This document shows positions 26,745 through 33,630 of a stretch of 36,292 nt of DNA, one piece after another (the first letter of the stretch is position 1; every line of letters begins with the position of its first letter). A program made the translations under genes and the position numbers. A model generated the notes under the pieces. The model saw nothing but the letters and a program-made list of their open reading frames with translations, was not told the origin of the DNA and searched no databases. Source of the stretch: a virus; the UHGV virus genome UHGV-0154029; one strand, written 5' to 3'.

Positions 26745-27041
26745 TCAGAATTCCATCTGGATTTGTTCAGAACGCTCGGTTGCCGCCGGGCGTTTTTTAT
26801 TGGTGATTCCATCAAGCGCATACTTAAAAGCCCTGCTAATCGGACTGATGTCTGATGCCATTCCGAAAGCACACAAGACCGAAGCAATAAACCGCCAGTC
26901 CGTTCTGCTTATCTTCGATTCATGACAGCCAATCATCTTTGCCAGACCGCGCTGGGTAAGCGTTGACAGGTTGATGAGTAAATCAGTTTCTGCGCGATCA
27001 ACGTCGCGCTGTGATAGTTTGCTGTAACTTGTTTGTTCCAT
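26745..27041 (-). CDS. cII: CII-like transcriptional activator
   Basis: 98 aa; C-terminus ...ITNKKRPAATERSEQIQMEF is identical to the lambda CII C-terminus; N-terminal HTH differs. Confidence 0.85.
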   Translation of the reverse strand: MEQTSYSKLSQRDVDRAETDLLINLSTLTQRGLAKMIGCHESKISRTDWRFIASVLCAFGMASDISPISRAFKYALDGITNKKRPAATERSEQIQMEF

Positions 27042-27094
27042 TTCTTATGATTTCCATAGGTAAATAATCACTAATACTCATCTTTCGATGAGCG

Positions 27095-27129
27095 ATTAAT
27101 TAGTTACCGCGTTGTCGGCGGTGCAGATT
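27095..27129 (-). promoter_or_regulatory. nutR-like site (boxA CGCTCTTTATCAA plus boxB hairpin with GACAA loop)
   Basis: Minus strand between cro and cII: CGCTCTTTATCAA, then ACCGCCGACAACGCGGT. The GACAA loop is P22-type. Confidence 0.5.
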
Positions 27130-27150
27130 GATAAAGAGCGGATCCGCTTA

Positions 27151-27366
27151 TTAAGCGGCTTTGTGTTCCGGCGGGAACACGTCATCAAGACTGACTTTTG
27201 CGCCTAACTTGTTTAGGCACGCAACAAGAGCACGGCATGTTTTAAGGTCTGGGAAGCGACGACCAGATTCCCAATGTCCGATAGCTCCCTGTGTGCATCC
27301 AACCGCCTTAGCAAGTGTTGTTTGAGAGATATTCAGTGACTCTCGATATTTTCGTAGGTTGCTCAT
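27151..27366 (-). CDS. cro: Cro-like repressor, all-alpha HTH type (71 aa)
   Basis: ORF-track entry trimmed to MSNLRKYRESLNISQTTLAKAVGCTQGAIGHWESGRRFP... (RBS GGAGGG); its recognition helix QGAIGHW parallels QGGIGHW of the adjacent repressor. Confidence 0.8.
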   Translation of the reverse strand: MSNLRKYRESLNISQTTLAKAVGCTQGAIGHWESGRRFPDLKTCRALVACLNKLGAKVSLDDVFPPEHKAA

Positions 27367-27477
27367 ATGCCCTCCATAGTAACCATGAAACAATAATACG
27401 ATATGTACTTTTGGAATGCAAACAAAAAATACATCTTGTGCATGGATGGTTTTAGTACATAGCGTAATAATAAGGAT
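27367..27477. promoter_or_regulatory. OR region with divergent PR (toward cro) and PRM (toward repressor)
   Basis: Minus strand: TTGCAT - 17 bp - TATTAT upstream of cro, with AGTACATATCGTATTAT in the spacer/-10 region, near-identical to AGTACACATCGTACTAT at PL; further ATGTACT/AGTACAT half-site-like elements. Confidence 0.55.
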
Positions 27478-28137
27478 ATGAAAATGAAATGGTATGAACT
27501 GGCTAGATCCAGAATGAAAGAGCTCGGCATAACTCAAGAGAAGTTAGCTGAAGAACTTGGTATGACGCAGGGTGGAATTGGTCACTGGTTGCGCGGATCT
27601 CGTCATCCATCTCTTGACGAGATTGGTGTGGTGTTTAAATACCTTGGTATTGATAACGTCTCATTCAACCACGACGGTACATTTTCACCTGCTGGCGAAT
27701 ACTCATCTGCCCCCGTTAAAAAACAATATGAGTACCCTGTTTTTTCTCATGTTCAGGCCGGGATGTTCTCGCCTGAGCTTAGAACCTTTACCAAAGGTGA
27801 TGCGGAGAGATGGGTCAGCACAACCAAAAAAGCCAGTGATTGTGCGTTTTGGCTTGAAGTTGAAGGTAATTCCATGACCGCACCAACAGGATCCAAGCCA
27901 AGCTTTCCTGACGGAATGTTAATTCTCGTTGACCCTGAGCAGGCTGTTGAGCCAGGAGATTTCTGCATAGCCAGACTTGGCGGTGACGAGTTTACCTTCA
28001 AGAAACTGATCAGGGATAGCGGTCAGGTGTTCCTACAACCACTAAACCCGCAATATCCAATGATCCCATGCAATGATAGCTGTTCCGTAGTAGGGAAAGT
28101 TATCGCCAGCCAGTGGCCTGAAGAGACATTTAGTTAA
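27478..28137 (+). CDS. cI: Immunity repressor: non-lambda HTH N-terminal domain fused to lambda cI-like S24 peptidase C-terminal domain
   Basis: 219 aa; the C-terminal ~135 aa ([134 protein letters not shown]) is near-identical to lambda cI; the N-terminal 70 aa is different. Start may be the second ATG (27484). Confidence 0.9.
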
Positions 28138-28169
28138 CAGCCTCACCACTCTAAAACACACAACAATAA

Positions 28170-28197
28170 CCCGACCTTAGCGTCGGGTTTTCTTTTT
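28170..28197 (+). terminator. Intrinsic terminator after the repressor gene
   Basis: Hairpin CCCGAC-CTTAGC-GTCGGG followed by TTTTCTTTTT. Confidence 0.6.
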
Positions 28198-28262
28198 CCA
28201 AAATATAAATCAATAAAATACAAAGTGTTATAAAAAACTAACCACATTTAGAACATTTTGTA

Positions 28263-28291
28263 TTGACTCAATAAAGTACACATCGTACTAT
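28263..28291 (+). promoter_or_regulatory. PL-like promoter with overlapping operator
   Basis: TTGACT (28263-28268) - 17 bp - TACTAT (28286-28291); inverted repeat AGTACACATCGTACT (28275-28289) overlaps the spacer/-10. Confidence 0.55.
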
Positions 28292-28336
28292 TTAGCCATC
28301 AGCAGGAAGCTGGAAGCCAAACGGAACAGATTGGCA

Positions 28337-28371
28337 GGCTCTTTAACTTCGATGGGGCGCTGACAAAGCGC
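28337..28371 (+). promoter_or_regulatory. nutL: boxA (GGCTCTTTAAC) and boxB hairpin GCGCTGACAAAGCGC
   Basis: boxA-like 28337-28347; boxB 28357-28371 with 5-bp stem and GACAA pentaloop as in P22 nutL; upstream of N. Confidence 0.7.
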
Positions 28372-28490
28372 AAACAGATACCAAACGAGATGGGTTTGGC
28401 GGTGATGTGAATTGCAGCTGCAACGACAGCAACCAGAAGATCAGCACCTGGCGCATCACCACCAAAGCCATTTCACATGAGGAAAATATC

Positions 28491-28799
28491 ATGACGGTAA
28501 TCGTGTACGGGAAATCAACATTTGCAGGAAATGCCAAAACTCGCCGTCATGAGAGGCGCAGAAAGCTGGCTATCGAGCGTGATGCTATATGCAACATCAT
28601 CGATTCGATCTTCGGCACAGACAGTGAGGAACCTGTTCAGGAAGCCCCGAGAAAACGTTTAATCCTTTCTGAAAAAGCAATATCACTCGGCAACATTCGT
28701 AACCAAAATACCGACGAATGCAGTGGAAGTATTTGCCTGCCAAACGTAGCTCTTTACGCGGCAGGCTACCGGAAATCAAAACAACTGACAGCCAGGTAA
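28491..28799 (+). CDS. N: N antiterminator, P22 gene 24-type
   Basis: ORF-track entry 28407 (GTG) trimmed to MTVIVYGKSTFAGNAKTRRHERRRKLAIERDAICNIIDSIFG... with the arginine-rich motif; the C-terminus ...LYAAGYRKSKQLTAR resembles P22 N. Confidence 0.85.
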   Translation: MTVIVYGKSTFAGNAKTRRHERRRKLAIERDAICNIIDSIFGTDSEEPVQEAPRKRLILSEKAISLGNIRNQNTDECSGSICLPNVALYAAGYRKSKQLTAR

Positions 28800-29027
28800 G
28801 TGATGAATCAGACATACATTCCATCATGCTTGAGAAATCTGCCAAAGCAGAAAGCAAAGCCCCGCAAGCAAGCCATAAAGGACGCTAAGGCAGAGGTTAT
28901 TGATCAAGCAATACAATTGCTCAGGGAGGAGCTAAGAAGTGGCAAGCTCGAAGGAATGATGATGCCATATCAGCGCGGATATCTATCGGCGATTAGTAAG
29001 TTGGAAGTATTGAAGAGTGAATTATGA
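28800..29027 (+). CDS. Small basic hypothetical protein (about 74 aa)
   Basis: ORF directly after N; likely start ATG at 28803; Lys/Arg-rich N-terminus and predicted helical C-terminus. Confidence 0.45.
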   Translation: MMNQTYIPSCLRNLPKQKAKPRKQAIKDAKAEVIDQAIQLLREELRSGKLEGMMMPYQRGYLSAISKLEVLKSEL

Positions 29028-29089
29028 ACTATCTGGAATTTCCGGATGGTTCATTGTTTTGGCAGCAAACCACTTATTTGAGGTGATAT

Positions 29090-29539
29090 ATGGAAGAACA
29101 AGCAAACAAGATTCTCGTAGAACTACTGAAAAAAGCCAGTAATGGAATAGACGTGGCTGTTTCATTTAGCCAGGCACAGATTCCTGATGTTGTTCATCAG
29201 TTGCTGCTATGGAATATGGTTGAAAGTCTGATTAAAACATTAATTGCCATTCTAACAATCCCACTGGTTTTCTGGTTTATGAAGAAGCAGTGCCAAAGAG
29301 TTGAGACAGGTAAAATAGGTGGTGAAGGATACTCATGGGAGAGGGGAAATCCCAAATACAGGCCGACAATGGTTTGGGATAGCAAAGGAGATATTAACAT
29401 TCTTATCATGCCATTGGTTGGAGTTTTGACTCTGTGGGGGATTTTTATTATTGGTGTAGTAACCAATATGACTTGGTTAAAAATCTGGCTGACCCCAAAG
29501 CTTTACCTTATCGAATATGCAGCATCATTGGTTAAGTAA
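29090..29539 (+). CDS. Two-TM membrane protein (149 aa); candidate superinfection-exclusion/abortive-infection factor
   Basis: Hydrophobic segments LIKTLIAILTIPLVFWFM and INILIMPLVGVLTLWGIFIIGVV; lies in the N-cIII accessory zone where lambda/P22 carry sieB. Confidence 0.6.
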   Translation: MEEQANKILVELLKKASNGIDVAVSFSQAQIPDVVHQLLLWNMVESLIKTLIAILTIPLVFWFMKKQCQRVETGKIGGEGYSWERGNPKYRPTMVWDSKGDINILIMPLVGVLTLWGIFIIGVVTNMTWLKIWLTPKLYLIEYAASLVK

Positions 29540-29688
29540 TTTCAGGACGCATAGTCGGCCTTTATTTTTGGCATAAACAACAGAATAAACACAGCACTGT
29601 GTATTCATTCCAACGAGTGAATACACGGAGCAATGTCGCTCGTAACTAAACAGGAGCCGACTTGTTCTGATTATTGGAAATCTTCTTT

Positions 29689-29716
29689 GCCCTCCAGTGT
29701 GAGGGCGATTTTTTTC
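29689..29716 (+). terminator. Intrinsic terminator (tL-like, presumably N-suppressed) upstream of the acidic-protein gene
   Basis: Hairpin GCCCTC-CAGTGT-GAGGGC followed by GATTTTTTTC. Confidence 0.55.
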
Positions 29717-29733
29717 TGTGAGGATATGAATAG

Positions 29734-30102
29734 ATGTCAAACATCAAAAAATACATCATTGATTACGACTGGAAAGCATCAATAGAAATTGAAATCGACC
29801 ATGACGTAATGACAGAGGAAAAACTTCACCAGATTAATAATTTCTGGTCAGACTCTGAATACCGACTCAATAAACACGGCTCTGTATTAAATGCTGTATT
29901 AATCATGCTGGCGCAACATGCTCTGCTTATAGCAATTTCAAGCGACTTAAATGCATATGGTGTTGTGTGTGAGTTCGACTGGAATGATGGAAATGGTCAG
30001 GAAGGATGGCCTCCAATGGATGGTAGCGAAGGAATAAGAATTACCGATATCGATACATCAGGAATATTTGATTCAGATGATATGACTATCAAGGCCGCCT
30101 GA
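29734..30102 (+). CDS. Acidic hypothetical protein (122 aa)
   Basis: RBS GAGGA; strongly Asp/Glu-rich (EFDWNDGNGQEGWPPMDGSEGIRITDIDTSGIFDSDDM); no family recognised. Confidence 0.6.
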   Translation: MSNIKKYIIDYDWKASIEIEIDHDVMTEEKLHQINNFWSDSEYRLNKHGSVLNAVLIMLAQHALLIAISSDLNAYGVVCEFDWNDGNGQEGWPPMDGSEGIRITDIDTSGIFDSDDMTIKAA

Positions 30103-30136
30103 GCGCGTTTTTAAAGAATACAACGAAGGAGGATAT

Positions 30137-31105
30137 ATGAGTGAAGTAACAGATTTAGTTGTTATTGAGAAAGCAAATGCAATGACTGTATTTCAGTCTG
30201 CCGACCAGATTGAAGAAATCCTTCAAAAGGTTGAACGTGAAGTTATGTCCTTTGTGCCTGATATCACAACGGCAAAGGGCAGAAAGGAGATCGCTTCTCT
30301 GGCGTATAAAGTTGCGCAGACGAAAACATATCTCGATGGTCTTGGCAAAGACCTTGTTGCTGAACTGAAGGAAATTCCAAAGCTAATTGATGCCAACCGC
30401 AAGACAGTGCGCGATCGCCTTGATGAGCTGAAAGCCAGGGCACGCCAGCCTCTTACTGATTATGAAGAGGAACAGGCGCGGATTAAAGCTGAAGAAGAAG
30501 CTAAGGCAGCAGCTGAAGCTCTCGCAAAGAAAATTGAGTCTGACCATGAAATAGCGATTTTGATGGATCGCGAATTTGACCGCCAAAGAGAAGAGGCAAG
30601 ACTCAAAGCTGAGCAGGAAAGGCGAGAGCATGAAGAACGCTTAAAAAAAGAAGCTGAAGAGAAAGCCAGAGCAGAAGCCGAAGCAAAGGCAAAAGCCGAA
30701 ATTGAAGCAGCAGCAAGGCGAGAAGCAGAAGCTAAGGCCGCAGCGGAACGTGCAGAGCGTGAACGCATTGAAGCCGAGCAACGAGCACAGCGCGAAGCAA
30801 AAGAGGCAGCAGAACGAGCTGAAAGAGAAAAGCAGGCGGCAATTGAAGCAGAACGCCGAAAAGCACAGGAGGAGGCTGAACGAATCCGGCGCGAGGCTGA
30901 AGCAAAAGAGCAAGCCAGAATAGCAGAAGAAAAAAGAATCAAGGACGAAGAAGAGCGTAGAGCAAAGGATAAAGCTCACCGGAAAGAAGTAAATAACAAA
31001 ATACTTGCTGACCTTATCAAGGTTGGCGCATCAGAAGATGTTGCTAAAAATATCATAACAGCCATCGTAAAAGGCGAAGTATTCGCAACAAAAATAACCT
31101 ACTAA
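30137..31105 (+). CDS. ER/K-rich coiled-coil (single-alpha-helix-like) protein with globular N- and C-terminal regions (322 aa)
   Basis: Central ~150 aa is a low-complexity run of E/A/K/R (AEEEAKAAAEALAKK...EAEAKAKAEIEAAARREAEAKAAAERAERERIEAEQRAQREAKEAAERAEREKQ...). Confidence 0.65.
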   Translation: MSEVTDLVVIEKANAMTVFQSADQIEEILQKVEREVMSFVPDITTAKGRKEIASLAYKVAQTKTYLDGLGKDLVAELKEIPKLIDANRKTVRDRLDELKARARQPLTDYEEEQARIKAEEEAKAAAEALAKKIESDHEIAILMDREFDRQREEARLKAEQERREHEERLKKEAEEKARAEAEAKAKAEIEAAARREAEAKAAAERAERERIEAEQRAQREAKEAAERAEREKQAAIEAERRKAQEEAERIRREAEAKEQARIAEEKRIKDEEERRAKDKAHRKEVNNKILADLIKVGASEDVAKNIITAIVKGEVFATKITY

Positions 31106-31129
31106 TAAAACCAACATAAGGAACCACCC

Positions 31130-31261
31130 ATGATTTACGCAATCGCGGGAGGCGCTCGCATGGGTGCCTTCCAATTAAATGAATCTTTACTTGAACGAAT
31201 CACCCGTAAATTACGTGACGGATGGAAAAGAGTTGAGGTCTTATTATGCGCAATGAAATAG
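31130..31261 (+). CDS. cIII: CIII-like protein (43 aa)
   Basis: Not in the ORF track. MIYAIAGGARMGAFQLNESLLERITRKLRDGWKRVEVLLCAMK; core LLERITRKLRDGWKR matches lambda CIII; RBS AAGGA. Confidence 0.7.
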   Translation: MIYAIAGGARMGAFQLNESLLERITRKLRDGWKRVEVLLCAMK

Positions 31262-31398
31262 CCATTAATCACCAGATGCTTCGTGCGGCACAAAACAAAG
31301 CAGTAATAGCCAGATTTATTGGTGATTCAAAAATGTGGCTTGAAGCAAATAAAGCGATGAAATCAGCTATCAACCATCCGTGGTATCGCAGGAAATGA
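31246..31398 (+). CDS. kil: Kil-like small protein (50 aa)
   Basis: Not in the ORF track. MRNEIAINHQMLRAAQNKAVIARFIGDSKMWLEANKAMKSAINHPWYRRK; the FIGD.KM motif and position after cIII suggest lambda Kil. Confidence 0.45.
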   Translation: MRNEIAINHQMLRAAQNKAVIARFIGDSKMWLEANKAMKSAINHPWYRRK

Positions 31399-31553
31399 GT
31401 TTTACAGATAACTGGTCAGACGAAGAATTCATTCGTCAGATGAAAGAATTAATCGGTAACGAAGGAGATATTCATGTCACTTGCAACCACAGTGAAGGAG
31501 AGCAAGTTACAGAGACGCATGTACACGCAGAAAGCTCTCTGGTATCGCCATAA
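31395..31553 (+). CDS. Possible small acidic protein (52 aa)
   Basis: ORF whose ATG overlaps the Kil-like stop (ATGA); no recognisable motif. Confidence 0.25.
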   Translation: MSFTDNWSDEEFIRQMKELIGNEGDIHVTCNHSEGEQVTETHVHAESSLVSP

Positions 31554-31652
31554 TGGCGACCGCGAAGGAATGCGGGTATGCCTTAATTTGTCACGAGTCG
31601 AAGTATTAAATCAGCGTTATTTCCTTGGGCCGTGTCCATTCTGAGGTGAATT

Positions 31653-32360
31653 ATGGATTTGAATAAATTCGATGAGCCATTCAGCCCTGAAGATATCGAA
31701 TGGCGAATACAGCAAAGCGGTAAAACACGCGATGGCAAGGTGTGGGCTATGGTGCTGGCTTATGTCACGAACCGGGCAATCATGAAACGCCTGGACGATG
31801 TTTGCGGCAAAGCAGGATGGCGCAATGAATACCGCGATATTCCCAACAACGGCGGAGTTGAATGCGGCATATCAATCAAGATTGATTCCGAATGGGTAAC
31901 CAAATGGGATGCTGCTGAAAACACGCAGGTAGAAGCCGTCAAAGGTGGTCGTTCCGGTGCAATGAAGCGCGCTGCCGTTCAGTGGGGAATCGGTCGGTAT
32001 CTGTATAACCTTGAGGAAGGTTTTGCACAAACATCTCTCGATAAAAAGCAGGGATGGCACAGGGCAAAACTCAAGGATGGAACAGGATTTTACTGGCTCC
32101 CTCCATCGCTGCCGGGATGGGCAATCCCAGCATCAGATAACAAACCATCACCAGAAAATACCAACCAGAAATCTCCATCGGTTGACTGCGAACAAATCCT
32201 GAAAGACTTCAGCGATTATGCGTCAACAGAAACTGACAAGAAAAAACTCATCGAGCGTTATCAGCGTGACTGGCAATTAATGGCTGGCAACGAGGAGGCG
32301 CAGGCTAAATGCGTTCAGGTAATGAACATCAGAGTTAACGAACTAAAACAGGCGGCATAA
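31653..32360 (+). CDS. Rad52/Sak-family single-strand annealing protein
   Basis: 235 aa; motif AMKRAAVQWGIGRYLYN is typical of Rad52-like SSAPs; located next to SSB (the position of erf in P22). Confidence 0.8.
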   Translation: MDLNKFDEPFSPEDIEWRIQQSGKTRDGKVWAMVLAYVTNRAIMKRLDDVCGKAGWRNEYRDIPNNGGVECGISIKIDSEWVTKWDAAENTQVEAVKGGRSGAMKRAAVQWGIGRYLYNLEEGFAQTSLDKKQGWHRAKLKDGTGFYWLPPSLPGWAIPASDNKPSPENTNQKSPSVDCEQILKDFSDYASTETDKKKLIERYQRDWQLMAGNEEAQAKCVQVMNIRVNELKQAA

Positions 32361-32834
32361 ATGGCAATCAGAGGCGTAAATAAGGTGATCATTATTGGTC
32401 GCCTTGGGCATGATCCAGAAATCAGATATTCACCATCAGGAACGGCATTTGCAAACCTTACAGTTGCTACGTCAGAACAATGGCGTGATAAGCAAACTGG
32501 AGAGCAAAAGGAGCAGACGGAGTGGCACCGTGTGGTAATTAGCGGGAAACTGGCAGAAATTGCTAGCGAATATCTGCGAAAAGGCTCAGAGGTTTATCTT
32601 GAAGGCAAATTGCGGACAAGAAAATGGCAGGATCAAAGTGGACAGGATCGGTTCACTACCGAAGTCATCGTGGGTGTTGGTGGAACCATGCAAATGCTTG
32701 GTGGCAAGCAAGGAGGCAATGAACAGTCTTCACATCAGCGAAATAACGGTCAGCAACAAAGACAGCAATCTCAGCAGCAGGGGAATCACAGCGAACCACC
32801 TATGAACTTCGACGATTCGGATATTCCGTTCTAG
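32361..32834 (+). CDS. ssb: Single-stranded DNA-binding protein
   Basis: 157 aa; OB-fold N-terminus, Gly/Gln-rich linker and acidic C-terminal tail DDSDIPF. Confidence 0.95.
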
Positions 32835-32843
32835 GAGCTGAAT

Positions 32844-33323
32844 ATGAAAATCTGCTCAAGATGCCATCAACAGAAGGAAGAAAGGGACTTTCAAATCAGA
32901 AGAGCATCCAGAGATGGATTAACTGCCGCTTGCCGGGCTTGCCTGGCTGAATACGACAAAGAACGCGCTGGATTGCCACATCGAGTATCAGCAAGGAGAG
33001 AATATCAATCATCGGAACGCGGAAGAGAACGGTGTAACGCAGCCAAAAAGCGGTTCATTCAGAGCAACCCATGGAAAAGAAAAGCCCACATCATTGTGGG
33101 TAATTTTTTGCGCGACGGTAAGCTAATCCGACCACCACAATGTGAGTGCTGCGGATCAGAATGTAAACCACAGGCGCACCACTGCGACTACAGCAAACCA
33201 ACCGATGTGATGTGGCTCTGCAAGTCATGTCATGTCGAGTGGCACAAACATAACAAACCTATCTACCCAGACGAGGAACCAGTAACTCTCCCCTTCCCTC
33301 GTCACGCTATTCACGCAATTTAA
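32844..33323 (+). CDS. HNH endonuclease-like zinc-binding protein
   Basis: 159 aa; N-terminal CxxC...CxxC and C-terminal CECCGSE...AHHCDYSKP...LCKSCHVEWH (HNH-like). Confidence 0.7.
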   Translation: MKICSRCHQQKEERDFQIRRASRDGLTAACRACLAEYDKERAGLPHRVSARREYQSSERGRERCNAAKKRFIQSNPWKRKAHIIVGNFLRDGKLIRPPQCECCGSECKPQAHHCDYSKPTDVMWLCKSCHVEWHKHNKPIYPDEEPVTLPFPRHAIHAI

Positions 33324-33336
33324 TCAGGAGAAAATC

Positions 33337-33630
33337 ATGCCAGCGCCTCTGTATGGTGCGGATGACGCGCGCCGCTGTTCCGGCAATTCCGTATCGGATG
33401 TGCTGGATAAATTCAGAAAAAACTACGATCGGATAATGTCGCTACCACAGGAAACGAAAGAGGAAAAGGAATTTCGCCATTGTATATGGCTTGCAGAGAA
33501 AGAAGAACGCGAGCGAATTTACCAGACATCAATCCGACCATTCCGCAAAGCCACATATACCCACTTCCCTGAAATTGACCCGCGCCTGCGTAATTACCGC
33601 TCACGCTATGGCGCTATCAGTAATGACTGA
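33337..33630 (+). CDS. Hypothetical protein (97 aa)
   Basis: ORF only. Confidence 0.5.

Follow-up and report, generated by a model that had tools for sequence, protein, structure and literature searches.

The interval between N and cIII of virus genome UHGV-0154029 is probably a combinatorial mosaic of the lambdoid early-left operon rather than a functional module

Introduction

In the early-left (PL) operon of phage lambda, the segment between ral and cIII carries a small RNA (sRNA) gene that ends in the terminator tL2a, followed by ea10. The sRNA, LPR1/PreS, is an Hfq-dependent transcript of about 88 nucleotides (nt) whose 3′ end is the tL2a hairpin; it belongs to the lytic cycle and activates dnaN translation, raising DnaN synthesis (bioRxiv 10.1101/2024.10.31.621285). 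Ea10 is an abundant early protein that was formerly mistaken for Kil, and ea10 scored as non-essential in a CRISPR interference (CRISPRi) screen, being dispensable for plaque formation. In phage phi80, the gene agt (PHI80_40) is immediately followed by gamL, and the GenBank note on its product reads 'anti-toxin for Gam; Mog, modifier of Gam'. Unrecognised genes between the antiterminator gene N and cIII are normal in lambdoid phages, which calls for caution when such an interval is annotated. Here, the corresponding interval of UHGV virus genome UHGV-0154029 (positions 28800-31105 of a window of 36,292 nt, the window being the whole stretch of DNA analysed) is compared with these systems. It holds four consecutive plus-strand genes (genes 1 to 4), which a first-pass annotation of the sequence had presented as one accessory cluster without lambda or P22 counterparts and as a candidate defence or anti-defence module.

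Results

A four-way mosaic with junctions at gene boundaries

At the DNA level the region is a four-way mosaic, in which positions 28671-29096 resemble phage mEp213, 29078-29727 HF4s, 29551-30121 lambda and 30125-31700 Sf6, with the junctions falling at gene boundaries. Judged from these matches, the region is already known, every element of it being found nearly base for base in lambda, Sf6, HF4s or mEp213. Genes 1, 2 and 4 are near-identical to genes of other lambdoid or P22-like phages (mEp213/mEpX2, HF4s and Sf6, respectively) and tblastn found no counterparts of them in the early-left regions of lambda and P22 that were compared. Gene 3 is lambda ea10, its product being identical to Ea10 at 122 of 122 residues, and the terminator behind gene 2 is tL2a; the supposed lack of lambda and P22 counterparts therefore stands for genes 1, 2 and 4 and is wrong for gene 3 and the terminator. 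Some part of the region is carried by about 43% of complete E. coli genomes, and no E. coli genome or phage record covers at least 80% of the query in one place (BLAST, in which the low-complexity filter on the ER/K stretch of gene 4 lowers coverage).

The assortment of the genes was followed in 80 related IMG/VR loci with an almost identical gene 4, of which 73 have at least 3 kilobases (kb) of upstream sequence. The upstream slot of these 73 loci holds gene 1 in 12, gene 2 in 10, ea10 in 3, ral in 8, P22 gene 17 in 8, Sf6 gene 36 in 6, a 107-amino-acid (aa) mEp213 gene in 6 and sieB in 5, in many combinations; genes 1 and 2 occur together in a single locus, and genes 1, 2 and 3 jointly in none. 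Given the many combinations and the lack of any locus with genes 1 to 3 together, these genes are not a co-inherited module, and the earlier picture of the four genes as one unit is not borne out. As read from these loci, the conserved backbone consists of the sRNA/terminator, gene 4, cIII and kil, the rest being interchangeable cassettes.

The interval is thus probably best explained as a routine combinatorial mosaic of the PL operon, consisting of four unrelated, independently assorting genes and one sRNA gene, and not as a functional module. As a candidate defence or anti-defence island it adds little. The descriptive part of the first-pass annotation was accurate: four consecutive plus-strand open reading frames (ORFs) lie between N and cIII (Table 1), the interval is a variable accessory slot of the early-left operon, gene 1 encodes a basic protein, gene 2 a protein with two hydrophobic segments and gene 3 a very acidic protein of 122 residues.

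Table 1. Features of the early-left region and its surroundings in the window.
Feature	Position	Strand	Details
cII-like gene	26745-27041	minus	
cI-type repressor	27478-28137	plus	
Terminator hairpin after cI	28168-28189		
PL-like sigma-70 promoter	28263-28291	plus	TTGACT, 17 nt spacer, TACTAT; consensus scan
nutL	28337-28371	plus	boxA-like GGCTCTTTAAC, 28337-28347; boxB GCGCTGACAAAGCGC, 28357-28371; read from sequence
N, P22 gene 24 type	28491-28799	plus	102 aa; Pfam N_peptide 1.5e-39
Gene 1, small basic protein	28803-29027 (ATG, 74 aa) or from GTG 28800 (75 aa)	plus	phrog_5305
Strong hairpin	29024-29054	plus	Overlaps gene 1 stop codon, then UGUUUUGG
Gene 2, two-transmembrane protein	29090-29539	plus	149 aa; phrog_3054
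Copy of lambda sRNA LPR1/PreS ending in tL2a	29629-29716	plus	Putative 5′ end, from the published length (about 88 nt)
Gene 3, lambda ea10, acidic early protein	29734-30102	plus	122 aa; DUF2528, PF10800
Gene 4, phi80 Agt / Sf6 gp33 family	30137-31105	plus	322 aa; phrog_1376
cIII	31130-31261	plus	Pfam Lambda_CIII 4e-15
kil	31246-31398	plus	Pfam Lambda_Kil 1.7e-20
Acidic 57-aa protein	31380-31553		phrog_2123, labelled 'recombinase'
Rad52/Erf-type annealing protein	31653-32360	plus	Pfam Rad52_Rad22 5e-26
SSB	32361-32834	plus	
ORF in the place of Sf6 gp26, an annotated endonuclease	32844-33323	plus	159 aa; match by position
Abc2 anti-RecBCD	33337-33630	plus	92% identical to P22 Abc2

A conserved sRNA gene and terminator link the cassettes

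The terminator that had been placed at 29689-29716 is present, with a stem at 29687-29708 followed by a T run to 29716 (−12.9 kcal/mol, RNA fold), and is tL2a; the Sf6 record annotates the same hairpin as tL2A. It ends a copy of lambda LPR1/PreS, and over the sRNA region the sole difference from lambda is the length of the T run. The stretch 29593-29716 is kept letter for letter in lambda, Sf6, HF4s and mEp213 despite differing flanking genes, and a 'boundary sequence' (bsq4) is annotated at this site in the Sf6 record. Among the 80 related loci, the tL2a/LPR1 sequence is found in 79, whatever the flanks, and abuts gene 4 in 65. By this distribution, tL2a/LPR1 behaves as a fixed linker between interchangeable cassettes. 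A conserved terminator in the slot between N and cIII can itself be a functional sRNA gene, as LPR1/PreS is.

The segment shared with lambda extends over 572 base pairs (bp; 29551-30121, 98% identical), starting at the end of ral and taking in tL2a and ea10. Its internal order, with the sRNA/terminator first and then ea10, is that of lambda, whereas its surroundings differ: the segment lies between ral and cIII in lambda and, here, between an unrelated membrane-protein gene (gene 2) and an Agt-family gene (gene 4). The lambda genes ral, orf28 and sieB are not present in the window.

Predicted expression of the interval

Transcription would start at PL, with N and gene 1 made first, and would then run through the strong hairpin after gene 1 and into gene 2. 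Transcripts ending at tL2a would give LPR1/PreS, which in lambda raises host DnaN synthesis, while N-modified polymerase would pass tL2a into ea10, gene 4, cIII, kil and the recombination genes; in the lysogen the whole PL operon would be repressed. The terminator separates the proximal genes of the slot from the distal ones, just as it does in lambda, and this arrangement, with gene 2 before tL2a and with ea10 and gene 4 beyond it, supports the N-dependent differential expression that had been proposed, being the known lambda layout.

The PL-like promoter is positioned between the cI terminator and nutL and, in a consensus scan, is the only promoter-like match upstream of genes 1 to 4 on the plus strand, for which reason these genes are argued to be silent in the lysogen. 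The predicted silence suggests early lytic functions, which it fits better than prophage-encoded defence.

Gene 4 belongs to a large family found beside recombination genes

Gene 4 belongs, together with phi80 Agt, Sf6 gp33 and Orf53 of Pseudomonas phage D3, to the phrog_1376 family (match at 2.9e-109). Its product shares 99% identity with Sf6 gp33; with phi80 Agt, likewise of 322 aa, identity is 51% over the full length (334 alignment columns; E = 5e-59). Three parts can be distinguished: (i) an N-terminal helical domain (residues about 1-160); (ii) an ER/K single-helix spacer (about 161-275); (iii) a small C-terminal domain (about 276-322). The same three-part architecture is found in Agt and gp33, whose genes also lie upstream of recombination genes. 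Of the earlier description as an ER/K-rich coiled coil, the first part is correct, 92% of the 115 residues at 161-275 being E, R, K, A or Q and 6% hydrophobic, and the second is less apt, since a single ER/K alpha-helix accounts for such a composition better than does a coiled coil of the classical, heptad type.

When a profile of the first 160 residues was searched, it drew in 5558 cluster representatives at E ≤ 1e-3; at the stricter E ≤ 1e-30, 834 were left. An alignment of 60 diverse members (gene 4 and 59 relatives) shows conservation of the N-terminal domain and of the last 45 residues or so; the middle is variable, and proteins of the family range from 221 to 429 aa in all. In these 60 no credible Pfam family was found, three isolated sub-threshold matches being noise. 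Gene 4 may accordingly be pictured as two conserved terminal domains, with a stiff ER/K helix of differing length that would keep them at a distance from each other. It is only in this helix that the length of gene 4 varies: the conserved ends are present in the variants of 221, 245, 262 and 322 aa, the 245-aa variant being 99% identical to gene 4 and the others about 56%, and up to 429 aa is reached in distant members. At the DNA level, a weak 6-bp periodicity is seen within gene 4 at 30649-30732. An AlphaFold2 model of the N-terminal part gave a short helix and one very long helix, with a predicted local distance difference test (pLDDT) score of 73.5 and a predicted template modelling (pTM) score of 0.32; as modelled, this part alone is not a compact globular domain. 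A sequence search of solved structures with gene 4 returned coiled-coil noise only.

Many records label homologues of gene 4 as TolA. The two share a long E/K/A-rich helical stretch, a likeness that is compositional only; gene 4 has no N-terminal membrane anchor, and no TolA Pfam domain was found at E ≤ 0.1 in the whole protein or at E ≤ 10 in its parts. On sequence grounds, the name is an annotation artefact. The Pfam tags for Abc2 and DUF7446 on some relatives come from deletion-fusion chimeras and not from the family itself. In these chimeras, found in some E. coli prophages, the first 70-80 residues of gene 4 are fused to the C terminus of Abc2 or to a DUF7446 segment, which points to deletions that removed the stretch from gene 4 to abc2 and thus to decaying prophages.

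The first-pass annotation had counted gene 4 as variable cargo; it is instead, in phages of many genera, a constant neighbour or the first gene of the exonuclease/annealing-protein/SSB module. The order in phi80 is agt-gamL-recT-exo, and members of the family lie at most one gene from exonuclease or annealing-protein genes in phi80, in Klebsiella phage ST101-KPC2phi6.1, in Pseudomonas D3 and, by synteny with D3, in Pseudomonas JBD44, as well as in Sinorhizobium phiLM21, Serratia Eta, Acinetobacter phi5013-M1, Aeromonas phage 62AhydR11PP and Shewanella phage 1/41. Vibrio phage Seahorse has the order Sak4-SSB-gene 4 homologue, and in Edwardsiella GF-2, Sf6 and the window a gene 4 homologue is followed by cIII and, further on, by the annealing protein, whose Rad52/Erf-type gene starts 548 bp downstream of gene 4 in the window. 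A recombination-gene neighbourhood was thus seen in about ten other genera. Five metagenomic contigs were long enough to judge the context of a gene 4 homologue, and in three of them recombination genes stand beside it or in the same operon (DUF3799-gene 4-AAA_24, exonuclease-gene 4, and Erf/YqaJ in the same operon); in another, an HNH/NinG-like nuclease lies near it. Two distant metagenomic contexts have the homologue followed by an ORF of 38-49 aa and then by a protein of 212-215 aa, which in one case is HNH/NinG-like and in the other has no match and which may represent a second conserved neighbour.

A neighbourhood of the same kind has been described for DUF1351 (PF07083), a group of uncharacterised genes in Firmicutes phages that adjoin recT, erf or sak4, the place elsewhere taken by Mu Gam-like genes (PMC8093625). 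As far as the Pfam scans show, the likeness is one of position: the DUF1351 model matched neither gene 4 nor the 59 relatives. When compared with the gene 4 family profile, r1t ORF9, which is not a Pfam DUF1351 member and falls in no Pfam family, gave a probability of 24%. Of the other DUF1351 candidates, Staphylococcus phage 80alpha carries DUF2483 instead, and ORF47 of Listeria phage A118 is YqaJ.

Gene neighbourhood suggests, as the most likely role of gene 4, that of an accessory factor in phage DNA-end or recombination transactions. Since the window has Abc2 and neither Gam nor GamL, whereas agt of phi80 is directly followed by gamL, a role limited to neutralising Gam is excluded here. 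More broadly, and only tentatively, the Agt/gp33 family could be an unrecognised, near-universal accessory of the recombination modules of Proteobacteria phages, a spacer or tether with a variable ER/K helix, which could have as its target the ends of DNA, the annealing-protein/exonuclease pair or the inhibitors of host RecBCD (Gam, GamL and Abc2). Such a spacer or tether would explain why the phi80 record names Agt a modifier of Gam toxicity. This very large family, often mislabelled TolA, with no Pfam model and placed beside recombination genes, is the lead of wider interest from the interval, and assigning it a role would cover a very common phage protein.

Several observations weigh against the interpretation given so far. 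The link of gene 4 to recombination is drawn from gene neighbourhood and from the GenBank note for phi80 Agt. In the window, cIII, kil and the 57-aa gene separate gene 4 from the annealing protein, and there is no Gam to be modified; one of the five metagenomic contigs has no recognisable recombination gene near the homologue; and the gene 4 family is absent from the Rec genes given in a recent (2025) survey of lambdoid Rec modules. As to silence in the lysogen, the promoter scan is a crude consensus match, which a weak or activator-dependent promoter active in the lysogen could escape. Finally, to call genes 1, 2 and 3 ordinary describes their genomic status and not their biology.

Anti-defence and exclusion readings of the four genes

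A defence origin was probed with PADLOC-DB 2.0, in which none of the four proteins had a meaningful match; the best matches were noise, at E = 0.016 (14 residues) and at E = 0.032 (the coiled-coil part of LmuB). NCBIfam gave nothing useful for the four proteins, and PHROGs placed all of them in families without an assigned function.

Among the alternatives to a mosaic of unrelated genes, the one that survives best, although it is unlikely, is that one or more of the genes encode an early anti-defence factor: Ea10 might inhibit a host nuclease or sensor or serve as its decoy, gene 1 might encode a small inhibitor, or gene 4 might work together with the anti-RecBCD function. This partly overlaps with the interpretation of gene 4 given above. 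The slot holds ral in lambdoid phages, and in related loci either ral or P22 gene 17 is found there; expression is predicted to be early and driven from PL; Ea10 is abundant and acidic (isoelectric point (pI) 4.28, 22 D+E); the annotation of phi80 Agt makes it a modifier of GamL, which inhibits RecBCD; and Abc2 is encoded downstream in the window. All of this is compatible with anti-defence, yet ea10 is dispensable for lambda plaque formation and genes 1 to 4 do not co-occur.

A second alternative concerns gene 2. The hydrophobic segments of its product are at residues about 43-65 and 100-128, and by sequence it is an uncharacterised early protein that is predicted to reside in the inner membrane. 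It has 451 homologues; those named come from Enterobacterales genomes (apparently prophages) and are annotated with no function, and a length of 149 aa is common to nearly all those listed. The family is near-invariant at the N-terminal 45 residues, the N terminus being placed on the cytoplasmic side, and at the C-terminal 22 residues. A near-identical copy occurs in HF4s, directly after N, and Sf6 gp34 is a partial relative. No match was found in Pfam, NCBIfam or PADLOC.

Like gene 2, sieB of lambda and P22 encodes a small membrane protein just downstream of N. That gene 2 is SieB was nevertheless ruled out: hhalign against P22 SieB gave a probability of 0.7%, there is no Pfam match, and the two genes are on opposite strands, sieB being transcribed against PL from its own promoter whereas gene 2 lies on the PL strand without a promoter-like site of its own. 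Gene 2 might still act in the manner of SieB, Imm or Cor, as a prophage membrane exclusion or abortive-infection protein that shields the lysogen from other phages, and its two transmembrane segments, its place in the sieB slot and a strongly conserved family apparently confined to enterobacterial prophages and phages are what one would look for in such a protein. This is nonetheless improbable, given the lack of homology to SieB, the strand and promoter arrangement, the copy in HF4s that directly follows N and is hence expected to be silent in the lysogen, and the negative PADLOC result.

Gene 3 matches the Pfam family DUF2528 along the entire model (positions 1-104 of 104), scoring 160.6 bits where the gathering cut-off is 22 (E = 1.8e-47). 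The AlphaFold2 model of Ea10 is confident (pLDDT 95.5, pTM 0.87) and consists of a beta-hairpin, four helices and a final strand. Foldseek found no relative of the model in the PDB and a single match, an unnamed viral protein, in BFVD, and a sequence search of solved structures gave no match.

The weakest alternative, that Ea10 has an SPFH (stomatin/HflC-like) fold and acts on FtsH-HflKC alongside cIII, which would influence CII stability and the lysis-lysogeny decision, is very improbable: although the model is confident, ea10 lies directly beside cIII in lambda, and HflK, stomatin, flotillin, QmcA, prohibitin and erlin turn up repeatedly in the best 35 matches (with scores too low to build on), Foldseek gave no match in the PDB, Ea10 has no membrane anchor, gene 4 lies between ea10 and cIII here, most related loci are without ea10, and no lysogeny phenotype of ea10 is given in the literature examined.

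Gene 1 and the hairpin behind it

Gene 1, which abuts the stop codon of N, encodes an uncharacterised phage early protein that is small and basic (pI 9.7). Copies that are 100% identical occur in mEpX2, mEp213, mEp506 and ECP1, and remoter relatives in HK225, in Sasha-like and swi2 phages, in Pseudomonas PS-1 and in a Vibrio phage; in HK225, no other annotated gene lies between the relative and an upstream promoter, itself annotated by consensus only. Searches of Pfam, NCBIfam and PADLOC gave no match. The hairpin behind gene 1 has 14 bp and a folding energy of −20.3 kcal/mol (z = −6.0), with none of 200 shuffled sequences as stable (RNA fold), and the sequence region matching it was found in 55 of the 80 related loci. 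From its position and stability, it may be a first terminator (tL1-like) or an RNA-processing site of the PL transcript.

Genomic setting of the interval

By its sequence, the source phage combines a P22-type N/nutL with an Sf6-like early-left region, and the closest records, HF4s and Sf6, belong to Lederbergvirus (P22-like). The 15-mer boxB has the same letters as are found at the annotated P22 nutL position, and N shares 68.6% identity with P22 gp24 along its entire length. The N_peptide match begins at residue 29 of the mechanically called ORF from GTG 28407 (130 aa) and, with the P22 gp24 alignment, indicates that this ORF is too long and that the true start of N is the ATG at 28491.

Between cI and PL, the gap at 28138-28262 has the terminator hairpin as its sole content; it holds no rexAB- or bstA-type defence genes, whereas lambda has rexAB. 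A protein with the BstA C-terminal domain is encoded by a related E. coli prophage, in strain PK12. No Gam, GamL, Ral, SieB or Rex was found in the window, and an Rfam scan of 27000-32000 matched no family, LPR1/PreS having no model there.

Downstream, cIII and kil form the boundary of the variable slot. The 57-aa gene behind them occupies the position of P22 arf, just upstream of the annealing-protein gene; no similarity of its product to P22 Arf was detected (tblastn), and its Sf6 counterpart is annotated as similar to HK97 gp42. The recombination module that follows, from the annealing protein to Abc2 (31653-33630), has the gene order of Sf6.

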